Counted from the stretch's first letter, positions 4,285 through 61,662 are shown. The stretch: DNA of 64,000 nt from an uncultured Rikenellaceae bacterium (GCA_964638545.1 CAZXAM010000001.1:83330-147329), one strand, 5' to 3'. Made by a program: numbers and translations. The notes: generated from the letters alone by a model not told the origin.

Positions 4285-4307
4285 CAATGTATTATTTGGT
4301 TCATTAT

Positions 4308-11230: not shown

Positions 11231-11437
11231 GAAGAAGATCCTTCACTTCGTTCAGGATGACAGTCATTAGTAGAATGTAAGTGGGGATGAAGCGGCGCGT
11301 TTTGTATTATGTTGTTTCTATGAACAGATTTTCTACGAAACGCGCCGCTTCATCCCCTATAACCTGATACCTGCACCTGTCATCCTGAATGCAGCCAATA
11401 CCGAGTGAGCGAGGTATTGGCGAAATGAAGGATCTCC
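11231..11437. repeat. Nested palindromic REP/MITE-like element
   Basis: The outer arms are GAAGAAGATCCTTCACTTCGTTCAGGATGACAG (11231-11263) and CTGTCATCCTGAA[32-nt hairpin GCCAATACC..GGTATTGGC]GAAATGAAGGATCT (11378-11435). The inner part is a perfect 20-bp inverted repeat, GGGGATGAAGCGGCGCGTTT (11283-11302) / AAACGCGCCGCTTCATCCCC (11338-11357), with a 35-nt loop. Confidence 0.8.
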
Positions 11438-11495
11438 TTCCTATTCCGGTTTGCAGGTATAATAATCATAGGTAAAGCCAACACTCCGGGGTTGA
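11384..11495. repeat. 112-bp repeat immediately 3' of a TIR gene, copy 1
   Basis: Aligns without gaps to 27512..27623, with about 9 mismatches by hand count. The aligned sequence is CCTGAATGCAGCCAATACCG.GTGAGCGAGGTATTGGCGAAATGAAGGATCT...AATAATCATAGGTAAAGCCAAC.CTCCGGGGTTGA. Confidence 0.8.
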
Positions 11496-11578
11496 GTGTA
11501 TCCCGGGCATCTCTGACCACGGGTGTGACCGTGGTTATTGGAATTCCAGCGCTGCAAGGCTTTTTCGTTGTTTGGTTT

Positions 11579-14386
11579 TTATTTTACCCTACCAAGATAG
11601 ATGTCAAGGAATTCAAGGACATCCTTTATCATATCATCTTTGCGAATATAATGGTCAGTATCATAAATCTTTAAATGCTTATCTTCTGGCTGCGTTCCCA
11701 AAAGATCATAAAAAGGTTTTACGTTTGTCTCAAATGGAAATGCAAGATCATATTTGCCGTTCAACATTAATACTGGTATCTTTACATAAGGCAGATAATT
11801 TAATTCATCTGCTTCAGGAATGCGTTTTCTCGTAGGTAAGCCCCCGACAATTAAGACACTAACTTTAAGACGGTCTTCAACTGCAGGAATTATCGCTCCA
11901 AGTCTCCCGCCCCAGCTATGACCATAGTAGGCCAGTTTCCCGGTATCAATATCCGATCTGGTAAAAAGATAATCAATCGATCTTTTAAAATCCTTAACCC
12001 ATTTAGTCAACCAATCAGCGTACTGATGGCCCTCATTTGTTACTGGTTTTTCGTTATCTATTCTTTCAAAGGTCCCATCATAAACCGGATATAGGACAGC
12101 ACGTCCGCTCTTCAGAATAAAGTCTGTGAACCAATTTGCCCAGTAATTTTTATTGAAATCCGTGGTACTAAGCGCATTACTGCCGGGGAAAAAAATGAGT
12201 GTCTGATAGGGCGGTGGAGAATTTTTTGGTATGAAGAGATATGCAATCATCTTTTCATTATTATACGCTGCATTGAAGGTGACTTTTTCAAGTATCCAAT
12301 CCTGATAACTGCTGTCCCGGCTTTCTATCAGGGCGTCTAATGGTATATTATCATAAAGAAACCTGCTTTTATAAATCCTGTAGGTAACCTCCGGAACCGG
12401 CCTTTCGATTGCATAGTTTCTGGATTCAGGGAGTATATACGATTGAAAAGCCGATTCAGGAATTTTTTCTTCATTTAAATATTTAACACATCGAAATCCA
12501 TTTTTGGGTGATCTGTCAAATGGAGGCAGCTGACTTATATTACCATACATATAAACAACATCATCCCACCCGCCTCCTCTCATTATCCTGCCATCAGGAC
12601 CCTGGTTCCAGCACCATTCTCTTACATTGCCCGCCATATCAAGCGCCCCGAAGCAGTTAATTGCAAAATTGGTTCCAACAGGTAAAGGGCCTGCTCCTTT
12701 AAAGTTGCTTAAAGGAAATAGTTTTGAATAGAAATAGTTTCCGAATGCTTCAAATTGGAATCCAGCTGCACTTCCCCAGTGATTGACGGTTGGAAGTTTC
12801 TTGCCGGCGTATTCAGCATAGGCTGCAGCCTCATACCAACTTATACCAGATACCGGATAATTTTCATATCCATCAGGGTAGTCGCCGGCAATCCACGTTG
12901 ATGGTCCGGGTTGTCCCGTTTTGTCCTTAAACTCAGTGAATGCCTCACTTAACGTTAATTTTTTCCCATCCTTTATGAAGTCATATTTCCAGTATTCTGG
13001 TTTCCTGTAACCACCTTCATTAACGAATTTTTTAAATTCTTTATTGGTAACTTCACAGCGATCAATCAAAAAACCATTCTTGTTTTTAAGATAATTACCT
13101 AATAATTCATTCTGGTAACCATATACATATATCATCCCGGGTGGAATAGTTCCCTGCTTGAATAACCTTCTGAAAATCGTATCAATCCTTGTCTGCATTA
13201 CAGCATCAATACTCTCATAGCCGGGTTTTTCAATTTTCATAAGGTAGAAGCTATGTTTTGGGACCAGGACTTGTCCTATCGGTGTCTTACCAAGATACTT
13301 CCATTGAGCAGCCGTATCAGAAAAGTCTCTGATCCTTACCTCCGCACCATCAGGATCAGTAATAATTGAAATATTTGTGGTAAAAGAAGATACCAATTCA
13401 TTGTAATTCTTGTTTTTTGAAAGATACTTTGCAACTTCCTGAGACAGCTTAAATGCTTCATCCATATTATTGCTGTTTGCAAGCTGTTCAATTTGAGGTA
13501 GCGCTTTTTCTCTTGCCCATTTGATCTTTGATTGCCGGTTAATTAAAATACCAATCATTAAAACAGAAGATAAAACAAACAGTATTAAAAGGAACATAAA
13601 CCATTTCCTTTTAAATAATAAAATCGCTCTTCTTCTTTCAGGGATTGGTAACTCCATTATTTGATCCTTCCCGATTACTTCTCCATTTTTATATTCAGGT
13701 TTTTCTGACCTAATTCTAATTTCATCTTCCCCCTTATGATCAAAATCTCTGATGTTATTTTCGGTCTTCATGTTCTCAGATGAGAAGGATATCATACTAT
13801 CAACCATCTCCTTGATTGCTAATGCAACCTTATTAATCTGGTCTCGGAAAAGTACCTGGCCCGGATATCTTACTATATCATCATCCTTACTTCTCAGCTG
13901 TCGGTTTACACCTGTTTCCTTATAAACAAAATCAATTGATCTCATAATACCGCCAACAACTGATTCGAATAATTTTATATCCCCTGGATCAAGATCATGA
14001 ATCCGGATTGGCAACACTCTGCACGCCACATTTCCGTTCAGAAGCTTGATTCTTAATCCAAACTTGTCTTCAGATGCCAGCTTCACAAATTCTTTCAACT
14101 CATTGTCCCAGGCAAATGCTTTTGGATCGCAATATGTCCTTGAAACAATCGGAATGAATATCAGACATTTGAGTCTGTCTCTTAAAGAGTCTTTTACGTC
14201 ATATGATTCAAGAAGATAGTCGCTGGGATTTATATCATAATATAGACTTACATCATCTTTAAACATTGAATCAAGTTCTCCTTTGAGATTCTCAACAAAC
14301 TCCGCCACCCAGTTATCGTGTTTGTTATCCTTCTGGCGGTAACTAATAAAGATGTCGTAATTGTAACTTTCAATAATGCTTGACAT
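11579..14386 (-). CDS. TIR-TM-PEGA-FGE/SUMF1-like-alpha/beta-hydrolase receptor (935 aa)
   Basis: TIR head at residues 1-~190 (DIFISYRQKDNKHDNWV...IFIPIVSRTYCDPKAFAWDNEL). TM helix at about 262-282 (WFMFLLILFVLSSVLMIGILI). PEGA-like segment at about 338-395 (ITDPDGAEVRIRD...GKTPIG...KIEKPGYES). FGE-sulfatase-like domain at about 418-636 (IDRCEVTNKEFKKFV...GNVREWCWN...RGGGWDD...GFRCVKY). C-terminal alpha/beta-hydrolase with G-H-S824-W-G, D880 and H912 (DLH / S9-peptidase-like). Confidence 0.85.
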   Translation of the reverse strand: MSSIIESYNYDIFISYRQKDNKHDNWVAEFVENLKGELDSMFKDDVSLYYDINPSDYLLESYDVKDSLRDRLKCLIFIPIVSRTYCDPKAFAWDNELKEFVKLASEDKFGLRIKLLNGNVACRVLPIRIHDLDPGDIKLFESVVGGIMRSIDFVYKETGVNRQLRSKDDDIVRYPGQVLFRDQINKVALAIKEMVDSMISFSSENMKTENNIRDFDHKGEDEIRIRSEKPEYKNGEVIGKDQIMELPIPERRRAILLFKRKWFMFLLILFVLSSVLMIGILINRQSKIKWAREKALPQIEQLANSNNMDEAFKLSQEVAKYLSKNKNYNELVSSFTTNISIITDPDGAEVRIRDFSDTAAQWKYLGKTPIGQVLVPKHSFYLMKIEKPGYESIDAVMQTRIDTIFRRLFKQGTIPPGMIYVYGYQNELLGNYLKNKNGFLIDRCEVTNKEFKKFVNEGGYRKPEYWKYDFIKDGKKLTLSEAFTEFKDKTGQPGPSTWIAGDYPDGYENYPVSGISWYEAAAYAEYAGKKLPTVNHWGSAAGFQFEAFGNYFYSKLFPLSNFKGAGPLPVGTNFAINCFGALDMAGNVREWCWNQGPDGRIMRGGGWDDVVYMYGNISQLPPFDRSPKNGFRCVKYLNEEKIPESAFQSYILPESRNYAIERPVPEVTYRIYKSRFLYDNIPLDALIESRDSSYQDWILEKVTFNAAYNNEKMIAYLFIPKNSPPPYQTLIFFPGSNALSTTDFNKNYWANWFTDFILKSGRAVLYPVYDGTFERIDNEKPVTNEGHQYADWLTKWVKDFKRSIDYLFTRSDIDTGKLAYYGHSWGGRLGAIIPAVEDRLKVSVLIVGGLPTRKRIPEADELNYLPYVKIPVLMLNGKYDLAFPFETNVKPFYDLLGTQPEDKHLKIYDTDHYIRKDDMIKDVLEFLDIYLGRVK

Positions 14387-27511: not shown

Positions 27512-27623
27512 CCTGAATGCAGCCAATACCGTGTGAGCGAGGTATTGGCGAAATGAAGGATCTACTACTAATTCCGGCTTGCAAGTACAATAATCATAGG
27601 TAAAGCCAACGCTCCGGGGTTGA
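27512..27623. repeat. 112-bp repeat immediately 3' of a TIR gene, copy 2
   Basis: See 11384..11495. It contains the GCCAATACC-N10-GGTATTGGC hairpin. Confidence 0.8.
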
Positions 27624-27674
27624 AAGACTTCCTGGTATCCCAAACGACGTGTGTCATAATTGTTAAGGGAAATC

Positions 27675-30089
27675 TCAGTTCTGATTATACTTTTCCAAGA
27701 TATTCTTAAACTCAGGCTGATTTTTTAATGGTTCCCATATCGGGTCCGTCTCGAGGATCTTAGTTGAGAGGAATCCCGGCATTGCCAAAAGATATTTTAT
27801 TTGCTCCAATGCTTCAGGGTATTTTCCAATCATCACATAGGTATGTGCAAGATCCTCAACCAGGAAAACTCCCCTCCATGCTTCTTTGCTTACCGGGAGC
27901 ATCTTTACGGCTTTCTCATTTAGGCTGACTGCTGCTTCTTCCATGCCTAATCCGGCATTAGCTATTCCCAGAGAACTGTACAGCCTAGGATCCTGCGGAA
28001 AACGATTGATCATATTTTCAAGCATTATGCGGGCTGAATCGTAATAGGCATGCTCGAGCTCAGGTTTATTAATAAAACCGTAAGCAGCAGCATAGTAAAG
28101 ATATTTTGGCCTGAAATAAAACTGACTCTGAAATGCGGCCGATGAGGTCAACGAAAGATCTGCCAGAGCTTCTTTGTATCTGCCATCATATAAATCTATA
28201 ACGACTTTCAATTCTACAAAAAGGGAATCTGACATAAAAGACCTGTTATTAATTTCTCCGTTTTCCAGTACTGCCCTTGCTTTTTTACTGTCGCCCTGCC
28301 ATCTGAGAAACATCTGAGACATGTAAAGATATGGTTGAATCCATTCCGGCTGAAGCATGATAGACAAATTATAATAATATTCAGCTTTCGGATAGTTTCG
28401 ACGCAGGTCAAATATTTCAGCAGCATCATCTGCATACCGGGAAGATCTAGGGTCAAGTTCAAAAGCCCTGGTTAAACAAGACTCCGCCAATGCCCAGTTC
28501 CCTGACCGCCTGTGTACAGCCCCTGACCAATATATAGCTTCCGTGTTTTTGGGTTGCTCTTTCAGTACTATTTCAAATTGTTTAAGGGCTTCAGGGTAAT
28601 TCAAATAACCCATATAGTAATAAATCCCAAAAACCAGATGGGCCTCGGGAAGGTCGGGATCAATCTCGAAAGCTATGTCAATAGCCTGTTTGCACTTAGG
28701 GATTATATCTTCACTTCTGTCCTGGTTAAACCAGTATCTGATCAATAAGCAATAAGCAGTTCCTGTATAAGCCAGGGCAAATTCAGGATCAAGTTCTATT
28801 GCTTTTCCATATAGTTTGTTGGCGGTTTTCAGGTCTTCAATATCGAAACTTTTCCGATAATAGAAATTCGCCTGAAGATAGTAATTGTAAGCTTCCAGGT
28901 TATTTGTCGGTTTCTTTTCAATTTTTTCTAATTCGTCAGGCGACAGAATCTCTTTAAGTTCGCTCGCAATGTCTTTGGCTATGTCGCTCTGAAGAGAAAA
29001 GATCTGTTGCATTTCCCTAACATATTCATTTGACCAGATATGTTTATCGGATTTTGAATCAATCAATTGAACCCAAATCTTTAATTTATTCCCTTCACGT
29101 CCAACACTCCCTTCAACCAGATAATTTGCATTAAGCTCGTTACCGATTATAGCAATGGATTTTTTTGAATCCCTGTATTGGTCTGAAGATGTTCTGGACC
29201 TTACCGTGAAACTTTTTACTGTCTGAAGATTATTGAGGACCTCCTCCATAAAACCATCACAAAAGTACAACTGGGTTGTATCATTGCTGAGGTTCCGGAA
29301 AGGGAGAACCGCAATAGTTTTTTCAGTCGTTTTGAACGGTTTAATGTATTTAGGAATAAAGAAGTACGCAAGCAGAACAAGAACAAGCAATACGAAAATA
29401 ACCGTAATGATTTTTGGTTTCAGATTTCTTCCCAGTTCAGGCTTTTCTTCTACATATCCTTTTGAAACCTTGCCACCCTCTATACTAAATGCATTCAGGG
29501 CAGAAATAACCTCTTTGATTGCATTACCAACCTTATTTATCTGGTTCCTGTAATTTGTATGATTCAGATTTTCCTGTGGATTTTCCTCCTTCGGCATCAA
29601 TGGCCTGTTTACCCCAGCCGATCTGAAGATAAAGTCAACACCGCGAAGCATTCCGCCCAAAACTGATTCACACGATTTAATATCGGTGGCGTCCAGATCA
29701 TAAATACGAACAGGAAGTACTCTGCTCGCAACATTCCCGTTAGGTAATTTTACCTTCAATCCAAACCTGTCATTGGATGCCTGCTCCACAAATGCCTTAA
29801 ACTCATGCTCCCATGCAAAGGATTTCGGATCGCAGTACGTGCGGGAAATAATCGGAATAAAAACCAGGCACCTGAGCTTTTCTTTCAGCGACTCATCCAC
29901 ATCATGTGTCTCAAGAAGTCCGTCATGAGGATTTTGATCGAAGTAGACACTGATTTCTTCCTTAAAAGTGGCTTCGACCTCTTTCTTAAGGTTTTCAACG
30001 AACTCAGTTACCCATCCGTCATACTTATTGTCTTTCTGTCGGTAACTGATAAAGATGTCGTAATTATATCCTTCGATAATGCTTGACAT
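27675..30089 (-). CDS. TIR-domain single-pass membrane receptor with TolB-N-like + TPR periplasmic tail (804 aa)
   Basis: Head residues 1-129 differ from the 4899..7076 protein at only 4 positions by my count. A TM helix (IITVIFVLLVLVLLAYFFIP) follows, then IAVLPFRNLSNDTTQLYFCDGFMEEVL...YLVEGSV...VQLID, then a long TPR-like region. Confidence 0.8.
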   Translation of the reverse strand: MSSIIEGYNYDIFISYRQKDNKYDGWVTEFVENLKKEVEATFKEEISVYFDQNPHDGLLETHDVDESLKEKLRCLVFIPIISRTYCDPKSFAWEHEFKAFVEQASNDRFGLKVKLPNGNVASRVLPVRIYDLDATDIKSCESVLGGMLRGVDFIFRSAGVNRPLMPKEENPQENLNHTNYRNQINKVGNAIKEVISALNAFSIEGGKVSKGYVEEKPELGRNLKPKIITVIFVLLVLVLLAYFFIPKYIKPFKTTEKTIAVLPFRNLSNDTTQLYFCDGFMEEVLNNLQTVKSFTVRSRTSSDQYRDSKKSIAIIGNELNANYLVEGSVGREGNKLKIWVQLIDSKSDKHIWSNEYVREMQQIFSLQSDIAKDIASELKEILSPDELEKIEKKPTNNLEAYNYYLQANFYYRKSFDIEDLKTANKLYGKAIELDPEFALAYTGTAYCLLIRYWFNQDRSEDIIPKCKQAIDIAFEIDPDLPEAHLVFGIYYYMGYLNYPEALKQFEIVLKEQPKNTEAIYWSGAVHRRSGNWALAESCLTRAFELDPRSSRYADDAAEIFDLRRNYPKAEYYYNLSIMLQPEWIQPYLYMSQMFLRWQGDSKKARAVLENGEINNRSFMSDSLFVELKVVIDLYDGRYKEALADLSLTSSAAFQSQFYFRPKYLYYAAAYGFINKPELEHAYYDSARIMLENMINRFPQDPRLYSSLGIANAGLGMEEAAVSLNEKAVKMLPVSKEAWRGVFLVEDLAHTYVMIGKYPEALEQIKYLLAMPGFLSTKILETDPIWEPLKNQPEFKNILEKYNQN

Positions 30090-30240: not shown

Positions 30241-31569
<1,329 letters not shown>

Positions 31570-31576
31570 TTATTAG

Positions 31577-32854
<1,278 letters not shown>

Positions 32855-32890
32855 TTAAAGATTCTTAATTTATTGAATTGATACTATTTC

Positions 32891-34207
<1,317 letters not shown>

Positions 34208-34258
34208 TTAAAATATAACAATAACTTTTTCTATCATTTATTCTTATCAGTCAGTTGT

Positions 34259-35560
<1,302 letters not shown>

Positions 35561-42681: not shown

Positions 42682-45600
42682 ATGGAGAAACATAATTTGT
42701 TATGGCCTTCAAACAGATTCTCAGGAAAACTGATCACTACAATCGCTGTTGTTATGATCTGTTTTTCCGATCTGTTCGCTGTGCCTGGCGATCCTGTGAC
42801 TGCAGGTGCTTATGGTAGCAATCAGCAGCAGCTGACTGTTGCAGGAAAGATCACTGATGCCTCAACCGGTGAAGCATTAGCTGGTGTTAACGTTGTTGTG
42901 GAAGGCACAACAATAGGCACCACATCCGATGTTAACGGGGCATATTCACTGCCCGGCGTTAATCGTAATGCCAGTCTTTCATTCTCATTCATCGGGTATG
43001 TAAAGCAGGTTGTTCAGGTATCAGGCAGAACGGTAATCAATGTAGTTCTTACTGCTGAGATTACCGGGCTCGAAGAAGTAGTTGTAATCGGCTACGGAAC
43101 TCAGAAGAAAGAGACATTAACCGGCTCGGTTGCTGCTATTAAGTCGGATCAGATCCTGTCCACAAAAAGTCTTAGCCTTGCAAGTAACATCCAGGGTAAG
43201 ATACCAGGGGTTCAGATCCGTCAGCAGACTGGTCAGCCCGGAACTTTCAACAGCCGTATCAGTGTTAGGGGATTTGGCGAACCTCTTCTGGTTATCGACG
43301 GCGTCGTACGCGACCAGATGGATGATTTTGAAAGGCTGAATCCGGAAGACATCGAGACCATCTCTGTTCTTAAGGATGCTTCTGCGTCCATATATGGCCT
43401 TGGCGCTGCAAACGGAGTTTTTATCGTAACAACAAAGAAGGGATTTGCAGGAAAAACAGAGTTTTCTCTCAATACAATGTATTCTGTTAAACAACCTACA
43501 AACGACTGGTCTGTCATAAACGTAGACGCCTATACAATGCGCTACATGTGGAATGAAATGAGCAGGAACTCGGAAAGCTCATCCAATATAACCAGTCCTG
43601 AAGAGCTTGCAAAATGGAAAGCCGGCACCGAAAAGTATTATACCGATTATAACTGGTGGGATAACCTTGTAAGGAAAAACGTCAATTCAAGTGAAATTAC
43701 CTTCAATGCCAGGGGAGGTAATGAGCAGATCACCTTCTTCTCAAGCTTTGGTTATAATAATGACGGCGGATACTTCAAGAATAATGAGCTTTTGCAATAT
43801 GACAGGTACACTTTCCGTACAAATGTTGAAGCAAAGCTGGCCAAGGGTTTGAAGATGGGTGTCAATGTTTACGGCAGATATGAAAATACGCTCAGCCCCA
43901 CAAGAGGAACAAGTTGGACATTCAAGCGTATAATTACGAATGACCGAGGTATAGGCCCCTTCACACTCGACGGTAATAACAATTACACACAGGTTCCTTC
44001 GGAAAACACTAACGTTTTTGCTGAGCTTTCGAGAGACGCATCAGGTTATGTACAATCCCTGAAATTACAGTATCAGACTACCGTTAATATCAATTATGAA
44101 CTCCCCTTCCTTAAAGGTTTATCAGTTGGGGCACAGATTGCATACGACGGACAGGTTAACGAAGGCAGGAATCTGAATGTGAATTTCTTATTATACGATT
44201 ATGTTACCGGACTTCCAAAGTCAGCATCAGTAGCTCCCACAAAATTTACAAATTCGTTCGATACCTATACCAGGAAGGATCTTCAGGCAAATATGACCTT
44301 CAGAAGAACTTTTGGTTCGCACAATATCGGAGCAAATTTTGTTTACCAGTTAAGGAGGATCGACAATAACAATCTTTCGGGAGTAAGGCAGTTCGATGAT
44401 CTCTACACCAAGGATATACTAAACCAGGCCAGCCTTACGGGCCAGTCAACAGCCGGGTCACGATCGGAAGCAGCATATATATCCTATATAGGCAGGTTCA
44501 ACTACGACTACAAATCCAAATACCTGCTTGAGTTCAGCTTCAGGGAGGACGGATCGTACAGGTATTCTCCCGCCCAGAGATGGGGATTCTTCCCTTCTGT
44601 TCAGGCAGCATGGAGGATCGGGCAGGAACCATTCATCAAGAACGCTCTCCCCATGGTTTCAGACCTTAAACTAAGAGCGACATGGGGCAAGTCAGGAAAT
44701 GATGCCGGAAGTGCATTCCAGTATTATGAAGGATACACCTGGAGCGGCGTCAGCGGCGGTTTTATATTTGCAGACGGTATCCTTACCAAAGGCATGGTCC
44801 CTCCCGGAATTGTTAATGATAATCTTACCTGGGTCGGTACAACTCAAAAAGACGTGGGTATTGACGTTGAACTGTGGAAAGGAAAACTGGGATTTACATT
44901 CGATTTTTTCAGAAGGAATTTGGTCGGCGAGCTCGGAACCCGCGCCTCCTCTCTGCCCAACACATTCGGTGCAAGCTTCCCGCAGGAGAATCTCAACAGC
45001 AGTTTCAATCAGGGATACGACTTAATGCTTACTCATCGCAATACCATAAAGAAGTTCAATTACGGTTTCAACGCAACATTAGGTTACAGCCGCACGTATC
45101 TTACTCATCGTGAGCGCACTGCGAATCAGAGTACCTGGGATGTCTGGAAGAACGGAAATGATACATATGATGATAAGGGACGTATCCAGGGAAGAGCGTT
45201 TATTAATGAGAGAGATGGTATCTATACAACTCTTGAAGAGATGGAGACAGCTCCTCTCGCTGGCGGAACCCTCGGTAACTATATGATGCTGCCCGGTATG
45301 GACAGGATCAAAGATACTGACGGCGATGGAAGGATAAGCGGTGGCGATGACCAGCTGCCTATATCCTGGTCGGCTCAGGGAACTAACCCTCCGTTGCAGT
45401 TCGGAGCAGGCCTGAATGCCAACTACATGGGTTTTGATGTAGTTATCAATATGGCAGGATCGTCCCTGTTTACAATGGGCAAGAGCAGAGGTGACCAGTG
45501 GGGTTATGGAACTCAATACAGGTTCTTCCTTGCAGAATATATGGACCGCTGGCATACAGCAAATGATACAGACAATCCGCGTGATCCTGCAACAGTATGG

Positions 45601-45915
45601 ATACCCGGCAAATGGGAAGCTCTTACAATTAACGGGAACAATACGACAACCGGAACCACCACTGATAAATGGAGAATGGATGCAACCTATTTAAGGATAA
45701 AGACCGTTGAACTTGGTTACAATGTTCCTTCGAGATTTGTAAAAGTTGTAGGACTTAAAGGTGTAAGGGTTTACGTTAACGGCTATAACCTGGTTACTTT
45801 CTGCAAAGATTTTCTTAAGGACATGGACCCTGAAAGGGATGAAGGATCATACGGTGCAGGAAATACATATCCCATCATGAGATCATTTAACATGGGTCTG
45901 AACATTAAATTCTAA
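42682..45915 (+). CDS. SusC/RagA-family TonB-dependent outer-membrane transporter
   Basis: Carboxypeptidase-regulatory-like N-domain (VAGKITDASTGEALAGVNVVVEGTTIGTTSDVNGAYSL), plug (VVVIGYGTQKKETLTGSV), a long barrel, and the C-terminal MGLNIKF. Immediately followed by a SusD gene. Confidence 0.92.
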   Translation: MEKHNLLWPSNRFSGKLITTIAVVMICFSDLFAVPGDPVTAGAYGSNQQQLTVAGKITDASTGEALAGVNVVVEGTTIGTTSDVNGAYSLPGVNRNASLSFSFIGYVKQVVQVSGRTVINVVLTAEITGLEEVVVIGYGTQKKETLTGSVAAIKSDQILSTKSLSLASNIQGKIPGVQIRQQTGQPGTFNSRISVRGFGEPLLVIDGVVRDQMDDFERLNPEDIETISVLKDASASIYGLGAANGVFIVTTKKGFAGKTEFSLNTMYSVKQPTNDWSVINVDAYTMRYMWNEMSRNSESSSNITSPEELAKWKAGTEKYYTDYNWWDNLVRKNVNSSEITFNARGGNEQITFFSSFGYNNDGGYFKNNELLQYDRYTFRTNVEAKLAKGLKMGVNVYGRYENTLSPTRGTSWTFKRIITNDRGIGPFTLDGNNNYTQVPSENTNVFAELSRDASGYVQSLKLQYQTTVNINYELPFLKGLSVGAQIAYDGQVNEGRNLNVNFLLYDYVTGLPKSASVAPTKFTNSFDTYTRKDLQANMTFRRTFGSHNIGANFVYQLRRIDNNNLSGVRQFDDLYTKDILNQASLTGQSTAGSRSEAAYISYIGRFNYDYKSKYLLEFSFREDGSYRYSPAQRWGFFPSVQAAWRIGQEPFIKNALPMVSDLKLRATWGKSGNDAGSAFQYYEGYTWSGVSGGFIFADGILTKGMVPPGIVNDNLTWVGTTQKDVGIDVELWKGKLGFTFDFFRRNLVGELGTRASSLPNTFGASFPQENLNSSFNQGYDLMLTHRNTIKKFNYGFNATLGYSRTYLTHRERTANQSTWDVWKNGNDTYDDKGRIQGRAFINERDGIYTTLEEMETAPLAGGTLGNYMMLPGMDRIKDTDGDGRISGGDDQLPISWSAQGTNPPLQFGAGLNANYMGFDVVINMAGSSLFTMGKSRGDQWGYGTQYRFFLAEYMDRWHTANDTDNPRDPATVWIPGKWEALTINGNNTTTGTTTDKWRMDATYLRIKTVELGYNVPSRFVKVVGLKGVRVYVNGYNLVTFCKDFLKDMDPERDEGSYGAGNTYPIMRSFNMGLNIKF

Positions 45916-45926
45916 AAACTACTGAT

Positions 45927-47924
45927 ATGAGAAAAGGTTTAATATATATTGCAGTTACAGCATTTCTCCTTGGCCTGGGCTCATGTAAGGATTTCCTTGC
46001 GCTTGAACCTTTGGATAAGGTGTCTGCTGAAAACCTGTTAGCAACCTCGGCAGGGGTGAAAACCCTGATGGCAACCCTGTACAACCAGATGCCTATGGAA
46101 GATTTTTCCTTCAACCCGGGAAGCGGATTCAACCAGCACCCCGGTGTGGGTAGCGGAGGCGCAGGCGACGGAGGATGGAGCCTGGCTTCAAATACCGATG
46201 AAGCAATTATTTGGGGCCCCAACAATTATAACTCCAGCCCTACGTCAGGAATTACAGGCACCTGGGATTACACAGGGATCAGGTATATAAACCGGTTCCT
46301 GGAGATAATTGAAAGTCTTAAGGCCGCCAACAAGCTTTCCGAAGCTGATTATAAGCAGCTGTTTGGCGAAGCCCATTTTTTAAGGGCTTGGAAATATTAC
46401 TCAATGGTACAGCGCTACGGAGGCGTTCCCATAATTGATGTGGTCCAGCCATTGCCAGCATCCGACGTTACTGAAGTCATGGTTCCCCGCTCTACAGAAA
46501 AGGCAACCTGGGATTTCGTGCTCACCGAACTCGATCTGGCAATCGCAAACCTGCCGGTCGACAGGCCGTCGAACGGAATGTACAGGGCCACAAAATGGGT
46601 AGCACTCTCTCTTAAATCGAGAGTTGCCCTCTATGCAGCTTCGGTAGCCAAACACTGGAACAAGGCTCCTCTGACCGGTGCGGCCGTTGATGCCAAGCTG
46701 GTAGGCGGAATGACGACATCTGATGCCAACGCTTATTACCTGGCATGCATTAATGCTTCGAAAGAGATCATGGATAATACATCTTTCTCCCTTTACCAGC
46801 CTAATCCGGCAAATAAAGCGGCAGCAGCCAAGAATTACCAGGATATGTTCGAATTTGCATCGTTTGCCAATCCTGAAATGATCTACATCAAACCCTATAT
46901 CGACGGTGCATCAAACAGCGGTCAGGGTCACGTTACAGATTTCTGGTTTACCCCGAAACAGCTCTGCTACCATACTCTTTATATGTCGTCAAGATGGAGT
47001 ACTACCCTCGATGCTGTTGATTGGTATGAAGATTACACCGACGACGGTACAGGGGCAAGCGCTCCGGTAAAGACGCGTGTTGATGGTGTTGAGAATTATG
47101 TTATTCCCAATCCAAAATCTATCACCGGTTTTGACCCGGCTAATTACGTACATTATACCACTCAGTATGGACCTTTTGTCGATAAGGATGTAAGGCTGAC
47201 CGCAAGCGTACTGCTTCCGGGATCAACTTTAAAAGGCACTCTTATCAATATGCAGGGTGGTATGGTCAAACCTGACGGATCCTATCTTGTTTATACTGAC
47301 GGCAATGTTGAAAAAGACGGTGTTACATATTACGCATTCGGGTCAGATAACATAAGCGGCTATTCAGCTTTTGGAGCTCTTGGCACTGCACAGGATAATT
47401 ACAGCAATACGGGATTCGCGCTCAGAAAATACCTTCAGGATTCCAAGACTGTCACAAACCTCGGTCTGTACGGCTCAACTCAGCCATGGGTTGAAATGCG
47501 TCTTGCCGAGATCTATCTCAACTATGCTGAAGCCGTTGCTGAAAGCGGCCAGGGTGATGCCACACTTGCTGCCACATGCCTGAATGCGATCCGCAAAAGG
47601 GCTGCCCATACAGACAATATCCCTCTTACACTTGAAAACGTACTGAAAGAGAGACGGGTTGAATTGTTATTTGAGGGTAAGCGCTACTGGGATCTCAGAC
47701 GCAGAAGGGACTTCCACGAAAGGTTTAGTGGCAACACATGCAGGTATTCGCTCATCCCGATGATCGACCTCACTGTGACTCCTCCGACATATATTTTCAT
47801 ACGTGCTCAGAACTACTACGACCAGAGAGCAAATGGATTTGAATTCGTGGAGAGAAGTTACTACGAGTCGATTCCGGGAACTGCAGGGAATAAGTTGATT
47901 CAGAACCCTGAATATGCTAAGTAA
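45927..47924 (+). CDS. SusD/RagB-family outer-membrane nutrient-binding lipoprotein
   Basis: Lipoprotein signal LLGLGSC. SusD hallmarks are present: EAHFLRAWKYYSMVQRYGGVPI, …RLAEIYLNYAEA…, ERRVELLFEGKRYWDLRR. Confidence 0.92.
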   Translation: MRKGLIYIAVTAFLLGLGSCKDFLALEPLDKVSAENLLATSAGVKTLMATLYNQMPMEDFSFNPGSGFNQHPGVGSGGAGDGGWSLASNTDEAIIWGPNNYNSSPTSGITGTWDYTGIRYINRFLEIIESLKAANKLSEADYKQLFGEAHFLRAWKYYSMVQRYGGVPIIDVVQPLPASDVTEVMVPRSTEKATWDFVLTELDLAIANLPVDRPSNGMYRATKWVALSLKSRVALYAASVAKHWNKAPLTGAAVDAKLVGGMTTSDANAYYLACINASKEIMDNTSFSLYQPNPANKAAAAKNYQDMFEFASFANPEMIYIKPYIDGASNSGQGHVTDFWFTPKQLCYHTLYMSSRWSTTLDAVDWYEDYTDDGTGASAPVKTRVDGVENYVIPNPKSITGFDPANYVHYTTQYGPFVDKDVRLTASVLLPGSTLKGTLINMQGGMVKPDGSYLVYTDGNVEKDGVTYYAFGSDNISGYSAFGALGTAQDNYSNTGFALRKYLQDSKTVTNLGLYGSTQPWVEMRLAEIYLNYAEAVAESGQGDATLAATCLNAIRKRAAHTDNIPLTLENVLKERRVELLFEGKRYWDLRRRRDFHERFSGNTCRYSLIPMIDLTVTPPTYIFIRAQNYYDQRANGFEFVERSYYESIPGTAGNKLIQNPEYAK

Positions 47925-56703: not shown

Positions 56704-57771
56704 ATGAAAAAAATCCTTCGGATCTTTTTGCGCATTACGGTAATTCTGATAATAGGCTTCCTGAGCCTGATTGTTTACGCTCTGATCTCCGATTACAGGC
56801 CTGCGGAAAAGGAGATAATCTCACAATCCGACAATCCTTCAATACTTAACAATGCACTCACCTTTACACTTTTAACCTGGAACCTCGGTTATGCCGGACT
56901 TGATCAGAACATGGATTTTTTCAAGGATGGCGGTACAAAAGTAATAACACCTAAAGACAAGTGTCTGGATAATATTTCTGCAATTGGGAACTTCCTGAAA
57001 ATGAATGATACAATTGATTTTATTCTCCTTCAGGAAGTTGACAGGAAGAGCAAAAGAAGCTACCGGATCGATGAATACCAGGGTCTGTCAGAGAAACTCG
57101 CCGGTCACTATCCCTTCTTTGCAAAAAACTATGATGTTTTCTTCGTTCCGGTTCCGCCTGCAAAACCTATGGGAAAAGTTCTATCAGGCATAGCCATCTA
57201 TTCGAAATATATCCCGGCATCATCAACAAGATATTCTCTCCCCGGGGATTTCGGATTCCCGACCCGGCTTTTTTACCTCGACAGATGTTTTATGGTGAAC
57301 AGATATAAAATTGAAAATGGAAGGGAACTTGTAATCATCAACACCCATAACGAGGCATTCGATGAGGGTGGAACGATAAGAAAGGCTCAGATGGAGAGTC
57401 TCAGGGAATTTGTTCAGAATGAATATAAAACAGGTAATTACGTAATAACAGGAGGTGACTGGAATCAGTATCCTCCCGATTTTAAGCCTGCTTTCTCCGG
57501 AAATAAGGAATTCACGGGCCAGATAGGAAACTTCAATCTCAAAGGCATAGAATCAGACTTCCTGCCGGGGGATTGGAGATGGAATTATGATCCATCAACA
57601 CCTTCATTCCGTACACTGATGGCAGCGTATGATCCTGCGACTACGCCAACGAGTGTTTGTGATATGTTCCTGGTTTCGCCAAATATAGAATCTGTTTCTG
57701 TAAAATGCCATCATCTCGATTTTAAGAACTCGGATCACAATCCGGTTATCATTCAGGTAAAACTAAGGTAA
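56704..57771 (+). CDS. Endonuclease/exonuclease/phosphatase (EEP) family protein with an N-terminal membrane anchor
   Basis: EEP landmarks are present: LLTWNLGYAG, FILLQEVD, INTHNEAFD, GGDWN, NSDHNPV. N-terminal helix ITVILIIGFLSLIVYALI. Confidence 0.8.
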   Translation: MKKILRIFLRITVILIIGFLSLIVYALISDYRPAEKEIISQSDNPSILNNALTFTLLTWNLGYAGLDQNMDFFKDGGTKVITPKDKCLDNISAIGNFLKMNDTIDFILLQEVDRKSKRSYRIDEYQGLSEKLAGHYPFFAKNYDVFFVPVPPAKPMGKVLSGIAIYSKYIPASSTRYSLPGDFGFPTRLFYLDRCFMVNRYKIENGRELVIINTHNEAFDEGGTIRKAQMESLREFVQNEYKTGNYVITGGDWNQYPPDFKPAFSGNKEFTGQIGNFNLKGIESDFLPGDWRWNYDPSTPSFRTLMAAYDPATTPTSVCDMFLVSPNIESVSVKCHHLDFKNSDHNPVIIQVKLR

Positions 57772-57870
57772 GCAGGGCTTTGGATTAAGGGAATTTTTCA
57801 TGAAGGATTCCCTTTCAAAATTGTGGATCATCAGGGAGATCCCTCATCCCACTGTCGCGGGATGAGGGAT
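57766..57870. repeat. 105-bp perfect direct repeat, copy A (overlaps the last 6 nt of the EEP gene)
   Basis: The sequence AGGTAAGCAGGGCTTTGGATTAAGGGAATTTTTCATGAAGGATTCCCTTTCAAAATTGTGGATCATCAGGGAGATCCCTCATCCCACTGTCGCGGGATGAGGGAT is identical base for base to 60222..60326. It contains the 12-bp-stem hairpin ATCCCTCATCCC-8 nt-GGGATGAGGGAT. Confidence 0.9.
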
Positions 57871-57960
57871 TTCCCGAAATGTGCAGAAAAGAAAATTAAA
57901 GTTTGTCAGCCGGAGCTTAAGCGATAGATGATGCCGTATTCGCTGAAACCGTGTATATTT

Positions 57961-60105
57961 TTACATTTTCACTTTCCCCATGATCTCGGTAAACTCCCGG
58001 GTGGACCTGAGATTTCTGTATGATGTCGTATCCACGTTCATCAATAAAAGGAAGAATTCTTCCCTCTCTTCATATCCCATTCTGAGATAGTTCAGCGCCT
58101 CCTTATTCCGGCCTATCTCTGCCATCAGGGCTCCTATCATGCTCCGGGGAACGAATCCGGTCCTGTTCCTTGCCAATAATGTATCGAGCAATCTGCCGGT
58201 TTCATTCAGGGCGCCTGATCTGCTGTATGCAACGCCCAGATGAGTTATCGACAGCGGAGAGAAGCCTGCCAGTGTTTTCTCCAATTCCTCGATTGATTTT
58301 TTATACTCTCCCTCAAAAAGATAAATTGCCCCCAGATAATAGTGACACACTGGAAATTTCCCGACCATTTTTGTAAGCAGGGATATGGCTGAATCCTTCT
58401 CACCAGCCTTATAGAGATGCACTGCATATAAGCCGTCGTTTATTGAATATGAAGGGTCAAGATCTATGTTCATGGCACGACGATCCCATTCAACTGCCTC
58501 AGCGAATTTCCCCATGAAGAATGACATTTCAGCAAAGTATTTATATACCTCAGGATTATTGGGGGCTAATTCAAGGGCTCGTCTGTAGTTTCGTTCAGCA
58601 GTTTCAAAATTGAAATTATATAAGAGGTCAGCGACACCGATAACAAAGTAGGCGTCAGCAAGCAAACTGTCAAGTTCCAGGGCTTTGTATGCAAGTTCCA
58701 CGGATGGAGGGTACGCTTCAACCGGCCTCAGATTTGCATAAAATGCCAAAGTCCCGTAGCAACGGGCAAGTCCGGTATATGCTTTTGCAAACCCGGGATC
58801 TGCTTCAATGGCTTTCTCAAAAAGCGTTTTGGCTTTCCATAATGATTCCGGTGTGCGCTGTGCACGCAAATGCTCTCCGAGAAGAAAGTAATCATAGGCC
58901 TCCAGGTTTTCAGAAGGGATTTTCTCAATCAGGTTTTTTTCCTCAGGCTCGATGACAGCTTTCAGTTCCCTGGCAACAGTCTGTGCCACCTCACTCTGAA
59001 TGGAAAAGATGTCGGAAATGTCTTTGTCATAGATCTCCGACCATAGATGTGTATCGGTCCGGGCATCAATCAGCTGAACCGAAATACGCACATTATTGCC
59101 CATCTTCCTCACACTCCCTGCAAGGATAGCCCCAACATTCAACTCACGGGCTATCTCCTTTAACGACAGAGTAGTGTTTTTGTATCTCATAGTTGTTGTG
59201 CGGGAAGTTACTTTCAGATCGCCTATTTTAAAAAGGCGGTCAATTATCTCATCCACCATTCCATCGCTGAAATATTCCTGGTTCGGATCGTTGCTCAGGT
59301 TTGCAAACGGCAGGACAGCTATGGATTTATCAATTGCTGATGAACTTCCCGGGGAATGCTTTATTAACGGGGGAATGATAAACAAACCTGCGATCAGAAA
59401 AGTGATGAACAGGGCAGCAGGGAGTGTTATCTTTTTCCATGGAATCTTCCCTTTTTCACTTTTATTCTCTGTTATTAACGATGCCCCTGATTGAGTCTTC
59501 ACATCTGGTTTCTGAATCCCTTCAATGATCTCTTTTATTGCATTGGCAACCTTATTTATCTGATTTTTGTATCTTGTCTTATTCAAATTTTTCTTTTCAT
59601 CATCGACAGGAGTAAGCGGTCTGTTAACTCCGGGCTCTTTATAAATAAACTCGACACCACGCAGCATTCCTCCTGAAACTGATTCATATTCTTTAATATC
59701 TGCAACATCCAGGTCATGAATGCAAACCGGCAGCACCCTGCTTGCTACATTCCCGCCAGAAAGTTTTATTTTCAATCCGAACTGATCTTTCGAAGCCTGT
59801 TCAACAAACGCCCTGAACTCATGTTCCCAGGCAAATGATTTAGGATCGCAATAAGTACGGGAGATGACAGGAATGAATATCAGGCATTTCAGTTTCTCCT
59901 TCAACGATTCATCCACATCATGTGTTTCAAGCAATCCGTCGTGTGGATTGATATCGAAATAAACACTGATCTCCTCCTTGAATGTAGATTCGAGTTCCGT
60001 TTTTAATGAATCTACAAACTCACTTACCCACTGCTCACCTTTATTATCCTTCTGGCGGTAAGAGATGAAGATGTCGTAATTATATCCGGGGATCAGGCTT
60101 GGCAT
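57961..60105 (-). CDS. TIR-domain single-pass membrane receptor with TolB-N-like + TPR periplasmic tail (714 aa)
   Basis: The head is MPSLIPGYNYDIFISYRQKDNKGEQWV...IFIPVISRTYCDPKSFAWEHEF. A TM helix (ITLPAALFITFLIAGLFIIPPLI) follows, then SIAVLPFANLSNDPNQEYFSDGMVDEII...ILAGSV...VQLIDAR, then TPRs. Confidence 0.8.
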   Translation of the reverse strand: MPSLIPGYNYDIFISYRQKDNKGEQWVSEFVDSLKTELESTFKEEISVYFDINPHDGLLETHDVDESLKEKLKCLIFIPVISRTYCDPKSFAWEHEFRAFVEQASKDQFGLKIKLSGGNVASRVLPVCIHDLDVADIKEYESVSGGMLRGVEFIYKEPGVNRPLTPVDDEKKNLNKTRYKNQINKVANAIKEIIEGIQKPDVKTQSGASLITENKSEKGKIPWKKITLPAALFITFLIAGLFIIPPLIKHSPGSSSAIDKSIAVLPFANLSNDPNQEYFSDGMVDEIIDRLFKIGDLKVTSRTTTMRYKNTTLSLKEIARELNVGAILAGSVRKMGNNVRISVQLIDARTDTHLWSEIYDKDISDIFSIQSEVAQTVARELKAVIEPEEKNLIEKIPSENLEAYDYFLLGEHLRAQRTPESLWKAKTLFEKAIEADPGFAKAYTGLARCYGTLAFYANLRPVEAYPPSVELAYKALELDSLLADAYFVIGVADLLYNFNFETAERNYRRALELAPNNPEVYKYFAEMSFFMGKFAEAVEWDRRAMNIDLDPSYSINDGLYAVHLYKAGEKDSAISLLTKMVGKFPVCHYYLGAIYLFEGEYKKSIEELEKTLAGFSPLSITHLGVAYSRSGALNETGRLLDTLLARNRTGFVPRSMIGALMAEIGRNKEALNYLRMGYEEREEFFLLLMNVDTTSYRNLRSTREFTEIMGKVKM

Positions 60106-60221
60106 GGAATGATATAACTATGATAAAGTTATGAAAGAAAGATGTGCAAGTCAAATAAATTATATCATAGCTATTCATGAAATGGAAATTGCCGTCGGCT
60201 TCAGCCGACAGTAAGGGTTTC

Positions 60222-60326
60222 AGGTAAGCAGGGCTTTGGATTAAGGGAATTTTTCATGAAGGATTCCCTTTCAAAATTGTGGATCATCAGGGAGATCCCT
60301 CATCCCACTGTCGCGGGATGAGGGAT
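60222..60326. repeat. 105-bp perfect direct repeat, copy B
   Basis: Identical to 57766..57870. Together the two copies bracket a 2351-bp segment holding only the TIR gene and its upstream region. Confidence 0.9.
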
Positions 60327-60348
60327 GACAAGCTCCTCATTGGAGGTG

Positions 60349-60425
60349 GGGGGAAGAAGAGGCGATTCGCAAAACTAACTGGAAAATTAAAGAGGTTGCT
60401 GGTGCGAATCGCCTCTTCTTCCCCC
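60349..60425. repeat. Long perfect hairpin (23-bp stem, 31-nt loop)
   Basis: GGGGGAAGAAGAGGCGATTCGCA … TGCGAATCGCCTCTTCTTCCCCC, followed by TTTTT. The stem sequence is related to the 20-bp stem at 11283..11357. Confidence 0.8.
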
Positions 60426-60525
60426 TTTTTGCCCCAAAAAAAATGTCATCCCGAGTCCCGTTTTATACGGGACGAGGGATCTCCCTGGTCATGCAGGTAA
60501 CTCTAAAAAAACTCCTCCGCAAAAT

Positions 60526-61662
60526 CTAAATGTCCCTGAAGTAATAATTCTTCAGCCATTCCCTGAATAGGGGATCGAGGATTGAAACCTTTCCGGATTC
60601 AATGTCAATTATTTCTCTTGCCATCAGCGCTTTTTTGATCTTCATGATGTTGCCTGAAGTTCCGAGCCCATAATCAATTATTACTTCCTGAGAACTTAAT
60701 TGCCCTACATTATTCACAACTGCTTTGAGAAAATTTACCTGGGTATCGCTCAGGTCGTTAGCCAGGTTCTGAAATAACAAGCTTAATTGCGATACCAGGC
60801 TGCTGAAAGCTGATTCAACTATTGCATTATTGCATCTCGACCTGCTCCTGAACCAGCATTGCTGGGAAAGCTGCTGCACATAGTACGGATGACAATCCGC
60901 TGACTCAGCGATGCGTCGCGCCACTTTGTTTTCGATAATTTTACCGGTATCGGCAAATCTCTTTTTTATAAAGAGTATCCATTCCTCAACCGGTATTTTC
61001 CTGAGTGGAATAATATTTCCGAATTTAAATAACGGCATTGCCTGTGAAGCAAAAATATCCATCATTACCTGAGGTCTGCTCCCTGAGAGACAGTATGAAA
61101 CCATGGAATGTTTCTGCCAGCGTGCTCTCAGCTTTTTCTGAAAGTCGATACTATTTTCGAAATCCGAAATATTCTGAAACTCATCGATGCAGACTACAAA
61201 TTTAATTTTCTTTTCAGTTGCTATTTTTTCTGCCAGATCCAGGATATCGTCAGGATTCCTTTTTACTTCCTTCAGGTTTAGTTCGAGTTTAATTAACGTA
61301 TCAGGTCCGGGATCTGATGTTACTTCAGGTGCGAACCTTCCAAGGAAACGTCCGGCAATATCCGTAACCTCCCTTATTTTTTTTGAAGAGCCCTGAAGAA
61401 CGGCAGCTGCGAAATTCCGGTAAAATTGTTCCTCGCTCCTGACATTTATAAGATCCGCGAAACAAAACCTGATCCTCTTTCTTTTCCTGAGAAGCGTTTC
61501 AGCAGCATGAGCTGCAAGTGATGATTTTCCCCATTTCGCGGGCGATATAAGGATTGAATTAACGGAAGAAGTGAAATTATGCATCAGGCTTTCCGTCTCC
61601 TGTTTTCTGCCGGTGAAATCGCTGCCGGCAGCAACCTTTCCATAAACAAATGGCGTCTTCAT
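60526..61662 (-). CDS. Arch_ATPase/DUF234-like AAA ATPase with a C-terminal winged-helix-like region
   Basis: The start FVYGKVAAGSDFTGRKQETESL is typical of the family. Walker A is the variant SPAKWGKSSL and Walker B is FVVCIDEFQ. The C-terminus is …DPLFREWL…. Confidence 0.7.
   Translation of the reverse strand: MKTPFVYGKVAAGSDFTGRKQETESLMHNFTSSVNSILISPAKWGKSSLAAHAAETLLRKRKRIRFCFADLINVRSEEQFYRNFAAAVLQGSSKKIREVTDIAGRFLGRFAPEVTSDPGPDTLIKLELNLKEVKRNPDDILDLAEKIATEKKIKFVVCIDEFQNISDFENSIDFQKKLRARWQKHSMVSYCLSGSRPQVMMDIFASQAMPLFKFGNIIPLRKIPVEEWILFIKKRFADTGKIIENKVARRIAESADCHPYYVQQLSQQCWFRSRSRCNNAIVESAFSSLVSQLSLLFQNLANDLSDTQVNFLKAVVNNVGQLSSQEVIIDYGLGTSGNIMKIKKALMAREIIDIESGKVSILDPLFREWLKNYYFRDI

Follow-up and report, generated by a model that had tools for sequence, protein, structure and literature searches.

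The stretch of DNA analysed here (hereafter the window: 64,000 nucleotides of an uncultured Rikenellaceae bacterium, GCA_964638545.1, CAZXAM010000001.1:83330-147329) contains a TIR-like gene with tetratricopeptide (TPR) repeats that is bracketed by two identical, directly oriented copies of a 105-bp sequence. The locus begins with an EEP gene (endonuclease/exonuclease/phosphatase family; Pfam PF03372, Exo_endo_phos; 56704-57771, plus strand), followed by repeat copy A (57766-57870, plus strand), a 90-bp spacer (57871-57960) that forms the 3' flank of the TIR-like gene and reaches to its stop codon, the TIR-like/TPR gene itself (57961-60105, minus strand; 714 aa), its native upstream region of 116 bp (60106-60221, minus strand), and repeat copy B (60222-60326, plus strand); the final part of copy B belongs to a 196-bp REPIN-like doublet of repetitive extragenic palindromes (REP; 60286-60481), beyond which lies a predicted AAA+/PF01637-type ATPase gene (60526-61662, minus strand), the upstream neighbour of the TIR-like gene. 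An initial annotation of the window had interpreted this arrangement as a recently inserted gene cassette. The comparisons presented here argue instead for a resident TIR-like gene, next to which a 105-bp stretch across the junction of spacer and doublet was probably copied in the recent past over a distance of 2.4 kb, in the same orientation, from the upstream side of the gene (site B) to the end of the EEP gene (site A).

The two repeat copies are identical at 105 of 105 positions, with a start-to-start distance of 2456 bp, and their borders are sharp; beyond them, merely 4 of 40 and 8 of 40 positions match by chance. In this respect the initial annotation was accurate, as it was in placing the beginning of copy A within the last two codons of the EEP gene (AGG TAA, 57766-57771; the last sense codon and the stop of the open reading frame [ORF] 56704-57771 make up the first 6 nt of copy A), and in its account of the DNA enclosed between the copies (90 bp of 3' flank, the 714-aa gene, and 116 bp of upstream region). 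The 105-mer occurs exactly twice in the window, and a third copy was absent even by low-stringency blastn; the 33-nt hairpin core has two occurrences in the 64 kb with three mismatches allowed, compared to none expected in shuffled sequences. No additional copy of the repeat unit was found in 72 kb of the source genome (the window and ca. 8 kb of contig L011) or in two public collections; neither the metagenome_contigs nor the genome_contigs collection contained a 30-mer taken from the linker that separates the hairpins, and a 21-mer common to the window and to a contig of a relative (L013, see below) was absent from metagenome_contigs. As a single strand, the repeat unit folds into an 8-bp-stem and a 12-bp-stem hairpin (57787-57814 and 57839-57870 in copy A), with a DNA folding energy of -19.7 kcal/mol (z = -3.7). 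The 12-bp stem, previously assigned to a REP family of the type GTCATCC...GGATC, was recovered by the DNA fold and has relatives elsewhere in the window.

The duplication is also represented in Logan contigs, which are k=31 assemblies independent of the window and come from two sequencing runs, with L011 derived from the second run. Contig L002 on the EEP side stops at position 57795 of the window, L001 spans 57841-60251, and L011 starts at 60297. Each of them reaches exactly 30 nt into the repeat, and therefore all four junction sequences are present in the reads; the repeat is a two-in, two-out node of the assembly graph, on which the three contigs agree. The k=31 graph shows a loop (repeat, gene segment, repeat) that topology alone cannot resolve, which would accommodate an assembly artefact in which this loop was threaded into the chromosome, for example from a single-repeat chromosome and a separate or circular gene-bearing molecule. 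However, all four junctions occur in the reads of independent assemblies, the junction between the gene and copy B represents the native arrangement as found in L013, and a 2.46-kb circle without a replication gene would itself need to be derived from an integrated form; an artefact of this kind is therefore highly improbable. Mis-assembly and a high-copy, dispersed 105-mer were the two outcomes named in the initial annotation as fatal to its cassette; neither was encountered, and the cassette is refuted by synteny instead.

The closest relative on the EEP side, with 82-87% nucleotide identity, is represented by a pair of JGI contigs from a single strain (L007 and L009, 99.6% identical to each other), in which the genes for aldose epimerase, GH10, EEP and the TIR-like/TPR protein follow each other in the same order and orientation as in the window. 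Nucleotide identity to the window amounts to 81-83% for the flanking genes and to 86.8% for the TIR-like gene, an orthologue with 89% amino acid identity. The spacer between EEP and the TIR-like gene measures 100 bp in L007 and does not contain the repeat unit, which in this strain is absent at site A as well as upstream of the gene; the sole resemblance to the first 11 nt of the unit is found at the EEP stop of L007 (AAGTAAGCAAG). On the ATPase side, the Logan contig L013 (run SRR27710296; ATPase 86% identical at the amino acid level) leads from the stop of the ATPase gene over a spacer of 216 bp into the start of the same TIR-like gene, with the first 56 of 56 amino acids identical, and contig L012 (85.7% nucleotide identity on the ATPase side) carries the ATPase gene, an 86-bp spacer and then a paralogous TIR-like/TPR gene. 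Since the gene adjoins EEP in L007/L009 and the ATPase in L013/L012, it is an older resident of the locus and not a recent arrival; its position between EEP and ATPase predates the split from these relatives. The ATPase gene, whose adjacency is kept in L012 and L013, is likewise the ancestral upstream neighbour of the TIR-like gene, and the far side of the TIR-like gene has been rearranged in the L007/L009 lineage, where the upstream gene (L009 2-136, on the plus strand when oriented as in the window) has a SusC-type start, with 43% identity to that of ORF 42682, and not the start of the ATPase. The duplication is not shown by any of these closest relatives (L007/L009, L013, L012), and the perfect identity of the two repeat copies dates it as recent, a conclusion of the initial annotation that stands.

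These syntenic patterns bear directly on the recent insertion of a 2.35-kb TIR cassette into an EEP-repeat-ATPase site, with duplication of a 105-bp target that would have resulted either from a staggered break or from the Campbell-type integration of a repeat-bearing circle; insertion into one of two REP copies had been proposed as well. The outer flanks of the repeats are compatible with cassette insertion, as copy A has the native EEP end at its left and copy B has the canonical GTC head at its right, an arrangement to be expected if a single copy had formerly linked EEP directly with the ATPase side; the perfect identity of the copies agrees as well. Yet the same gene occurs beside EEP (L007/L009) and beside the ATPase (L013/L012) without the duplication, and the collinearity of L013 with the window continues through 60221/60222, the putative insertion junction, which is thus not novel. 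The empty site that the initial annotation recommended seeking in relatives (EEP, one repeat, ATPase) was not found among the relatives examined, where the gene was found beside EEP or ATPase instead. An allele of this structure is also the product of a deletion between the two copies, and so it is possibly a descendant and not necessarily an ancestor of the present arrangement; on present evidence, it would be a descendant. The 2.35-kb segment between the repeats contains a single ORF, for the TPR membrane protein, and has no terminal inverted repeats; transposase, integrase or REP-associated tyrosine transposase (RAYT) domains were not detected among 31 window ORFs scanned against Pfam (23 of them full-length), and megablast searches of 57766-60326 against plasmids and against phages yielded no match. 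To our knowledge, a target duplication of 105 bp is far outside the range made by known transposases, which also weighs against a cassette. Both insertion scenarios are contradicted by the synteny of L007/L009, L013 and L012, and the arrival of the gene as a recent cassette is very unlikely. An identity of the repeat as integron attC or att site was also rejected, given that no integrase was seen in the window and that the repeat unit is ordinary spacer in L013.

More distant homologs lie in other surroundings. An EEP homologue with 79% amino acid identity (L008) has a wholly different neighbourhood, and orthologues of the TIR-like gene with 84-85% amino acid identity (L003-L006, L010) are found in unrelated contexts (integrase, HipAB, Fer4 protein, peptidase S8), with homology ending together with the coding region. 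The orthologue on L003 (84% amino acid identity) is bracketed by direct repeats of ca. 91 nt (7786-7876 and 10301-10392) with 80-92% identity, and a phage-type integrase gene is located just downstream; as an insertion scar these repeats were rejected, and they rather represent a terminator-like module after each of two consecutive TIR-family genes.

The comparison with L013 also provides the direction of copying. L013 is collinear with the window from the start codon of the TIR-like gene through its upstream region (90.5% identity; 105 of 116 positions), across 60221/60222, and up to the GGATC motif at 60281-60285; within this range, the non-REP part of copy B (60222-60285) is conserved in L013 with 50 matches, 8 mismatches and one 6-nt gap. 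In its first 64 nt, the repeat thus consists of spacer native to the upstream side of the TIR-like gene, and not of sequence from the EEP end. The remaining 41 nt (60286-60326) coincide with the beginning of the REP doublet, which is absent from L013. Judged from this alignment, the repeat unit is a composite of 64 nt of native spacer and 41 nt of doublet, with a junction that is natural to site B alone; copy A is therefore the derived copy, and copy B the source. The opposite polarity, with copy A as the original and copy B as its derivative, was rejected on account of the collinearity of L013. When the repeat is removed, the spacer between EEP and the TIR-like gene amounts to 90 bp, compared to 100 bp in L007, in agreement with the derived status of copy A. 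The AGG TAA at the EEP end is native to site A, since homologous EEP proteins stop at the same position; the homologues examined end in ...VKLK/R where the window EEP ends in ...VKLR.

The doublet at site B is bounded by GGATC motifs (60281-60285 and 60477-60481) and comprises the unit REP_B (ca. 60290-60329), a nested hairpin (60349-60425), and most (60445-60481) of an inverted unit, REP2 (60445-60495); the tail of REP2 (60482-60495) lies outside the 196-bp segment and is present in L013. The arms of REP_B and REP2 are 85% complementary, and the region 60275-60500 folds at -70.4 kcal/mol (z = -12). The REP family has the layout GTC-hairpin-CTCCCTG, with the head GTCATCC and the tail GGATCTCC; units were located at ca. 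4494, 11253, 11379, 60445 and 60290-60329, and a partial unit occupies 57839-57870 in copy A. Copy B ends at the foot of the 12-bp REP hairpin, and the GTC head (60327-60329), just outside copy B, is missing at copy A.

Several further structures accompany these elements. The nested hairpin at 60349-60425 consists of a perfect 23-bp stem and a 31-nt loop, is followed by TTTTT on the plus strand, and occurs as a single copy in the window; the nearest plus-strand gene end is that of EEP, on the other side of the TIR-like gene. A known RNA was considered and rejected, as Rfam gave only sub-threshold matches of microRNA models to the long hairpin, which were taken as chance. A separate 163-nt repeat, with copies at 11384-11546 and 27512-27674 that are 82% identical, carries a long-stem member of the REP family and is located directly 3' of the TIR-like genes 11579-14386 and 27675-30089; modules are thus shared between the 3' flanks of the two paralogues.

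The right border of the repeat, which separates the conserved GTC head precisely from the stem of the REP hairpin, and the membership of REP_B in an inverted REPIN-type doublet would also suit a RAYT encoded elsewhere in the genome, which might have cut at the foot of the REP_B hairpin and transferred the REP arm together with 64 nt of flank to site A in an aberrant, one-ended move; REPINs are described as RAYT-mobilised inverted REP doublets (PMC3337134; PMC3116915). However, the copied unit is not the element itself, as its left end lies 64 nt outside the doublet and its right end 41 nt within it; moreover, the two sites have no target sequence in common, a RAYT gene was not present among the window ORFs scanned, and no further copies of the unit were found. 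A RAYT cut at the REP foot is unlikely, and a weaker alternative than a hairpin-associated template switch or a short-patch ectopic conversion, which the anatomy of the junctions indicates as the most likely mechanism.

The left junction of copy A falls into a tract of microhomology that includes AGGTAA (6 nt) with certainty, and extends to up to 11 nt (AGGTAAGCAGG) if L007 serves as a guide; since the junction lies within this microhomology, the EEP reading frame is left untouched. The right junction of copy A (GGGAT|TTCCC) is located at the foot of the hairpin. Searches around copy A and at both sites revealed no target duplication, no inverted ends and no shared target sequence. The locus thus combines the features of a microhomology-mediated templated insertion or ectopic patch duplication: the donor is nearby and native, the copy stands in a foreign context, one junction lies in microhomology, and a target duplication is absent. 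The flank at the right junction (TTCCC, within 57866-57875) pairs with GGGAG upstream of the REP stem, and extends the stem at site A from 12 to 17 bp with one mismatch; this extension could be a coincidence or the trace of a pre-existing REP tail.

The sequence of events may be envisioned as follows. In the window lineage, in which ordinary spacer upstream of the TIR-like gene adjoins the 196-bp REP doublet, a DNA end growing at the EEP stop would have paired with microhomology at site B, and ca. 100 nt of site B would have been copied during replication or repair synthesis (first template switch), until copying stalled at the REP structure and returned to site A (second template switch). A short-patch ectopic conversion would be an equivalent option with the same product. 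The repeat itself needs no function.

Direct repeats at a distance of 2.4 kb are able to convert each other, and the duplication might accordingly be old, with the copies kept identical by repeated gene conversion (concerted evolution) and their identity then undated; the comparison with L013, which covers site B, would allow for such a history. It is nevertheless quite unlikely, as L007/L009 carry the unit neither at site A nor on the upstream side of the gene, and as the copied stretch extends into a REP doublet that is absent from L013; over long times, moreover, the gene would tend to be lost by deletion between direct repeats of 105 bp.

Several observations weigh against recent copying from site B to site A as outlined here, or are not accounted for by it. 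Clear microhomology is absent from the right junction of copy A. The four bases at the very left edge of copy B (60222-60225) read AGGT in the window but TGAC in L013; this is either a chance difference at site B that lengthened the microhomology, or the result of 4 nt having moved from A to B, a transfer that the simple model does not predict. Site A was compared with one lineage only (L007/L009), whose intergenic DNA is too diverged for base-by-base alignment, and the L013 comparison covers site B only. The 196-bp doublet was either inserted in the window lineage or deleted in L013. Finally, the copy number of the 105-mer is based on 72 kb of the source genome.

The enclosed gene had been designated a TIR receptor gene; it encodes a membrane protein with TPR repeats, and the TIR assignment reaches sub-threshold scores only. 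The predicted protein consists of an N-terminal TIR-like domain of 185 aa (sub-threshold), one transmembrane segment, a TolB_N/CadC-like region, and TPR repeats. The N-terminal domain is very strongly conserved, and is common to five genes in the window at the DNA level; an exhaustive HMMER search with this domain collected 1287 cluster representatives, among which no link to annotated TIR proteins was found. The Pfam profile TIR_2 matched the paralogous N-termini at E = 0.006-0.14, below the gathering score, in four of the five genes; for the fifth gene (frameshifted, 1484-4287), the segment scanned for TIR_2 lies downstream of its TIR-like ORF. The enclosed gene itself matched TIR_2 at E = 0.013 with 16 bits (cut-off 28), with three paralogues similarly weak, and the NCBIfam model 'TIR-like FxsC' at E = 0.008. 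A PDB profile search returned nothing, hhalign against a bona fide TIR_2 domain gave a probability of 5% with only the DIFISY strand aligned, PADLOC returned no match, and the AlphaFold2 model of the N-terminal 185 aa was unusable (pLDDT 41). A 'TIR-like' label for the 185-aa domain is plausible at the level of sub-threshold profile matches. A promoter-like site (TTTCCA-18-TATAAT, with TG) is located upstream of the gene, from 60188 to 60159.

The same upstream region contains a small hairpin (GTCGGCTGAAGCCGACGGCAATTTCC; ca. 60186-60210, or 60184-60212), of which a 26-mer has its only hit, an exact match, in an unrelated intergenic hairpin cluster (L014, 3299-3324) of an Acidobacteria metagenome-assembled genome with 56% GC; a match of 26 nt is unexpected by chance, and points to a hairpin motif of wide distribution. 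The first of the five TIR-like genes (1484-4287, minus strand) is broken: its N-terminal ORF (3994-4287) loses the family frame after ...LVFVPI and then runs into a stop, and its FGE-sulfatase/DLH body forms a separate ORF (1484-3979), as the result of a frameshifted pseudogene or a sequencing error. The window as a whole is chromosomal DNA of Bacteroidales-like character, and contains a xylan-type polysaccharide utilisation region (GH10, GH43), efflux pumps and esterases; the large ORFs at 42682-47924 are read as a putative SusC/SusD-like pair. Four tandem paralogous esterase-like genes of ca. 430 aa each (30241-35539) carry GC-rich repeats that have a period of 24 nt and code for linkers rich in Ala, Pro and Gly.

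The duplication has a consequence for the enclosed gene that the initial annotation had already recognised, and that stands as a deduction from the presence of two direct copies of 105 bp: the gene is excisable by homologous recombination, leaving one copy behind. Direct copies of 105 bp are well above the minimal length for RecA-dependent recombination, and the TIR-like gene with its promoter can be lost by a RecA-type loop-out that would leave EEP, one repeat copy, the REP doublet and the ATPase; this potential for deletion is deduced from the repeat arrangement. A further-reaching alternative would combine this loop-out with REP activity: a REP transposase or REP structure would have moved the REP arm with its 64-nt flank and thereby bracketed a member of the TIR-like sensor family with direct repeats, creating a presence/absence switch, possibly with a circular intermediate that re-enters at the remaining copy; we regard such a switch as quite unlikely. 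The value of the locus lies chiefly in a correction: a direct repeat that resembles the scar of a mobile cassette is revealed by relatives to accompany a resident gene and a local copy-paste event beside a REP. It also illustrates cleanly, in a natural setting, how a REP hairpin can coincide with the border of a templated duplication, and how recombination can then delete a gene that such a duplication has flanked. If reads across deletion and circle junctions were found in the population, the locus would become a simple case of REP-linked gene presence and absence in an uncultured Bacteroidales lineage; otherwise, it would represent ordinary genome wear.

Compared to known systems, the 105-bp repeat shares features with several categories. 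The hairpin part of the repeat, though not the remainder, resembles REP and REPIN sequences in being a short extragenic palindrome with conserved head and tail and several copies in the window, and site B has the pair of inverted units around a spacer, forming one long hairpin, that characterises REPINs (PMC3116915; PMC3337134). The repeat differs from them in having two copies only, with 41 of its 105 nt derived from the doublet and 64 nt of unique local spacer, and the doublet differs in its length of 196 bp and its nested 23-bp hairpin. A transposon with target-site duplications, or an integrative element with attL and attR sites, would likewise place direct repeats on both sides of a gene with its own promoter; in contrast to such elements, the locus has no recombinase or element ends, the repeat is 105 bp long, the gene is syntenic in relatives, and one of the supposed junctions is native. 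In 1990, Shyamala and colleagues reportedly found tandem duplications in Salmonella to be joined at REP sequences, and a REP hairpin at the border of a rearrangement is a feature that the present locus has in common with these REP-mediated events; they differ in that the Salmonella events are recombinations of REP with REP that produce large tandem duplications, whereas here a single 105-bp patch was copied. Template switching by fork stalling (FoSTeS) or microhomology-mediated break-induced replication (MMBIR) makes templated insertions and small ectopic duplications. Processes of this type, or short-patch conversion, provide the closest parallels: a near donor, the same orientation, microhomology, no target duplication, no element ends, and a border at a stable structure. 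The locus departs from them in the lack of clear microhomology at the right junction and in the unexplained 4-nt difference to L013 at the left edge, and the mechanism itself is read from the anatomy of the junctions. In summary, none of the categories REP, REPIN, transposon scar and att site applies to the 105-bp repeat, which represents a small ectopic duplication bordered by a REP hairpin; small ectopic duplications are a known kind of event.

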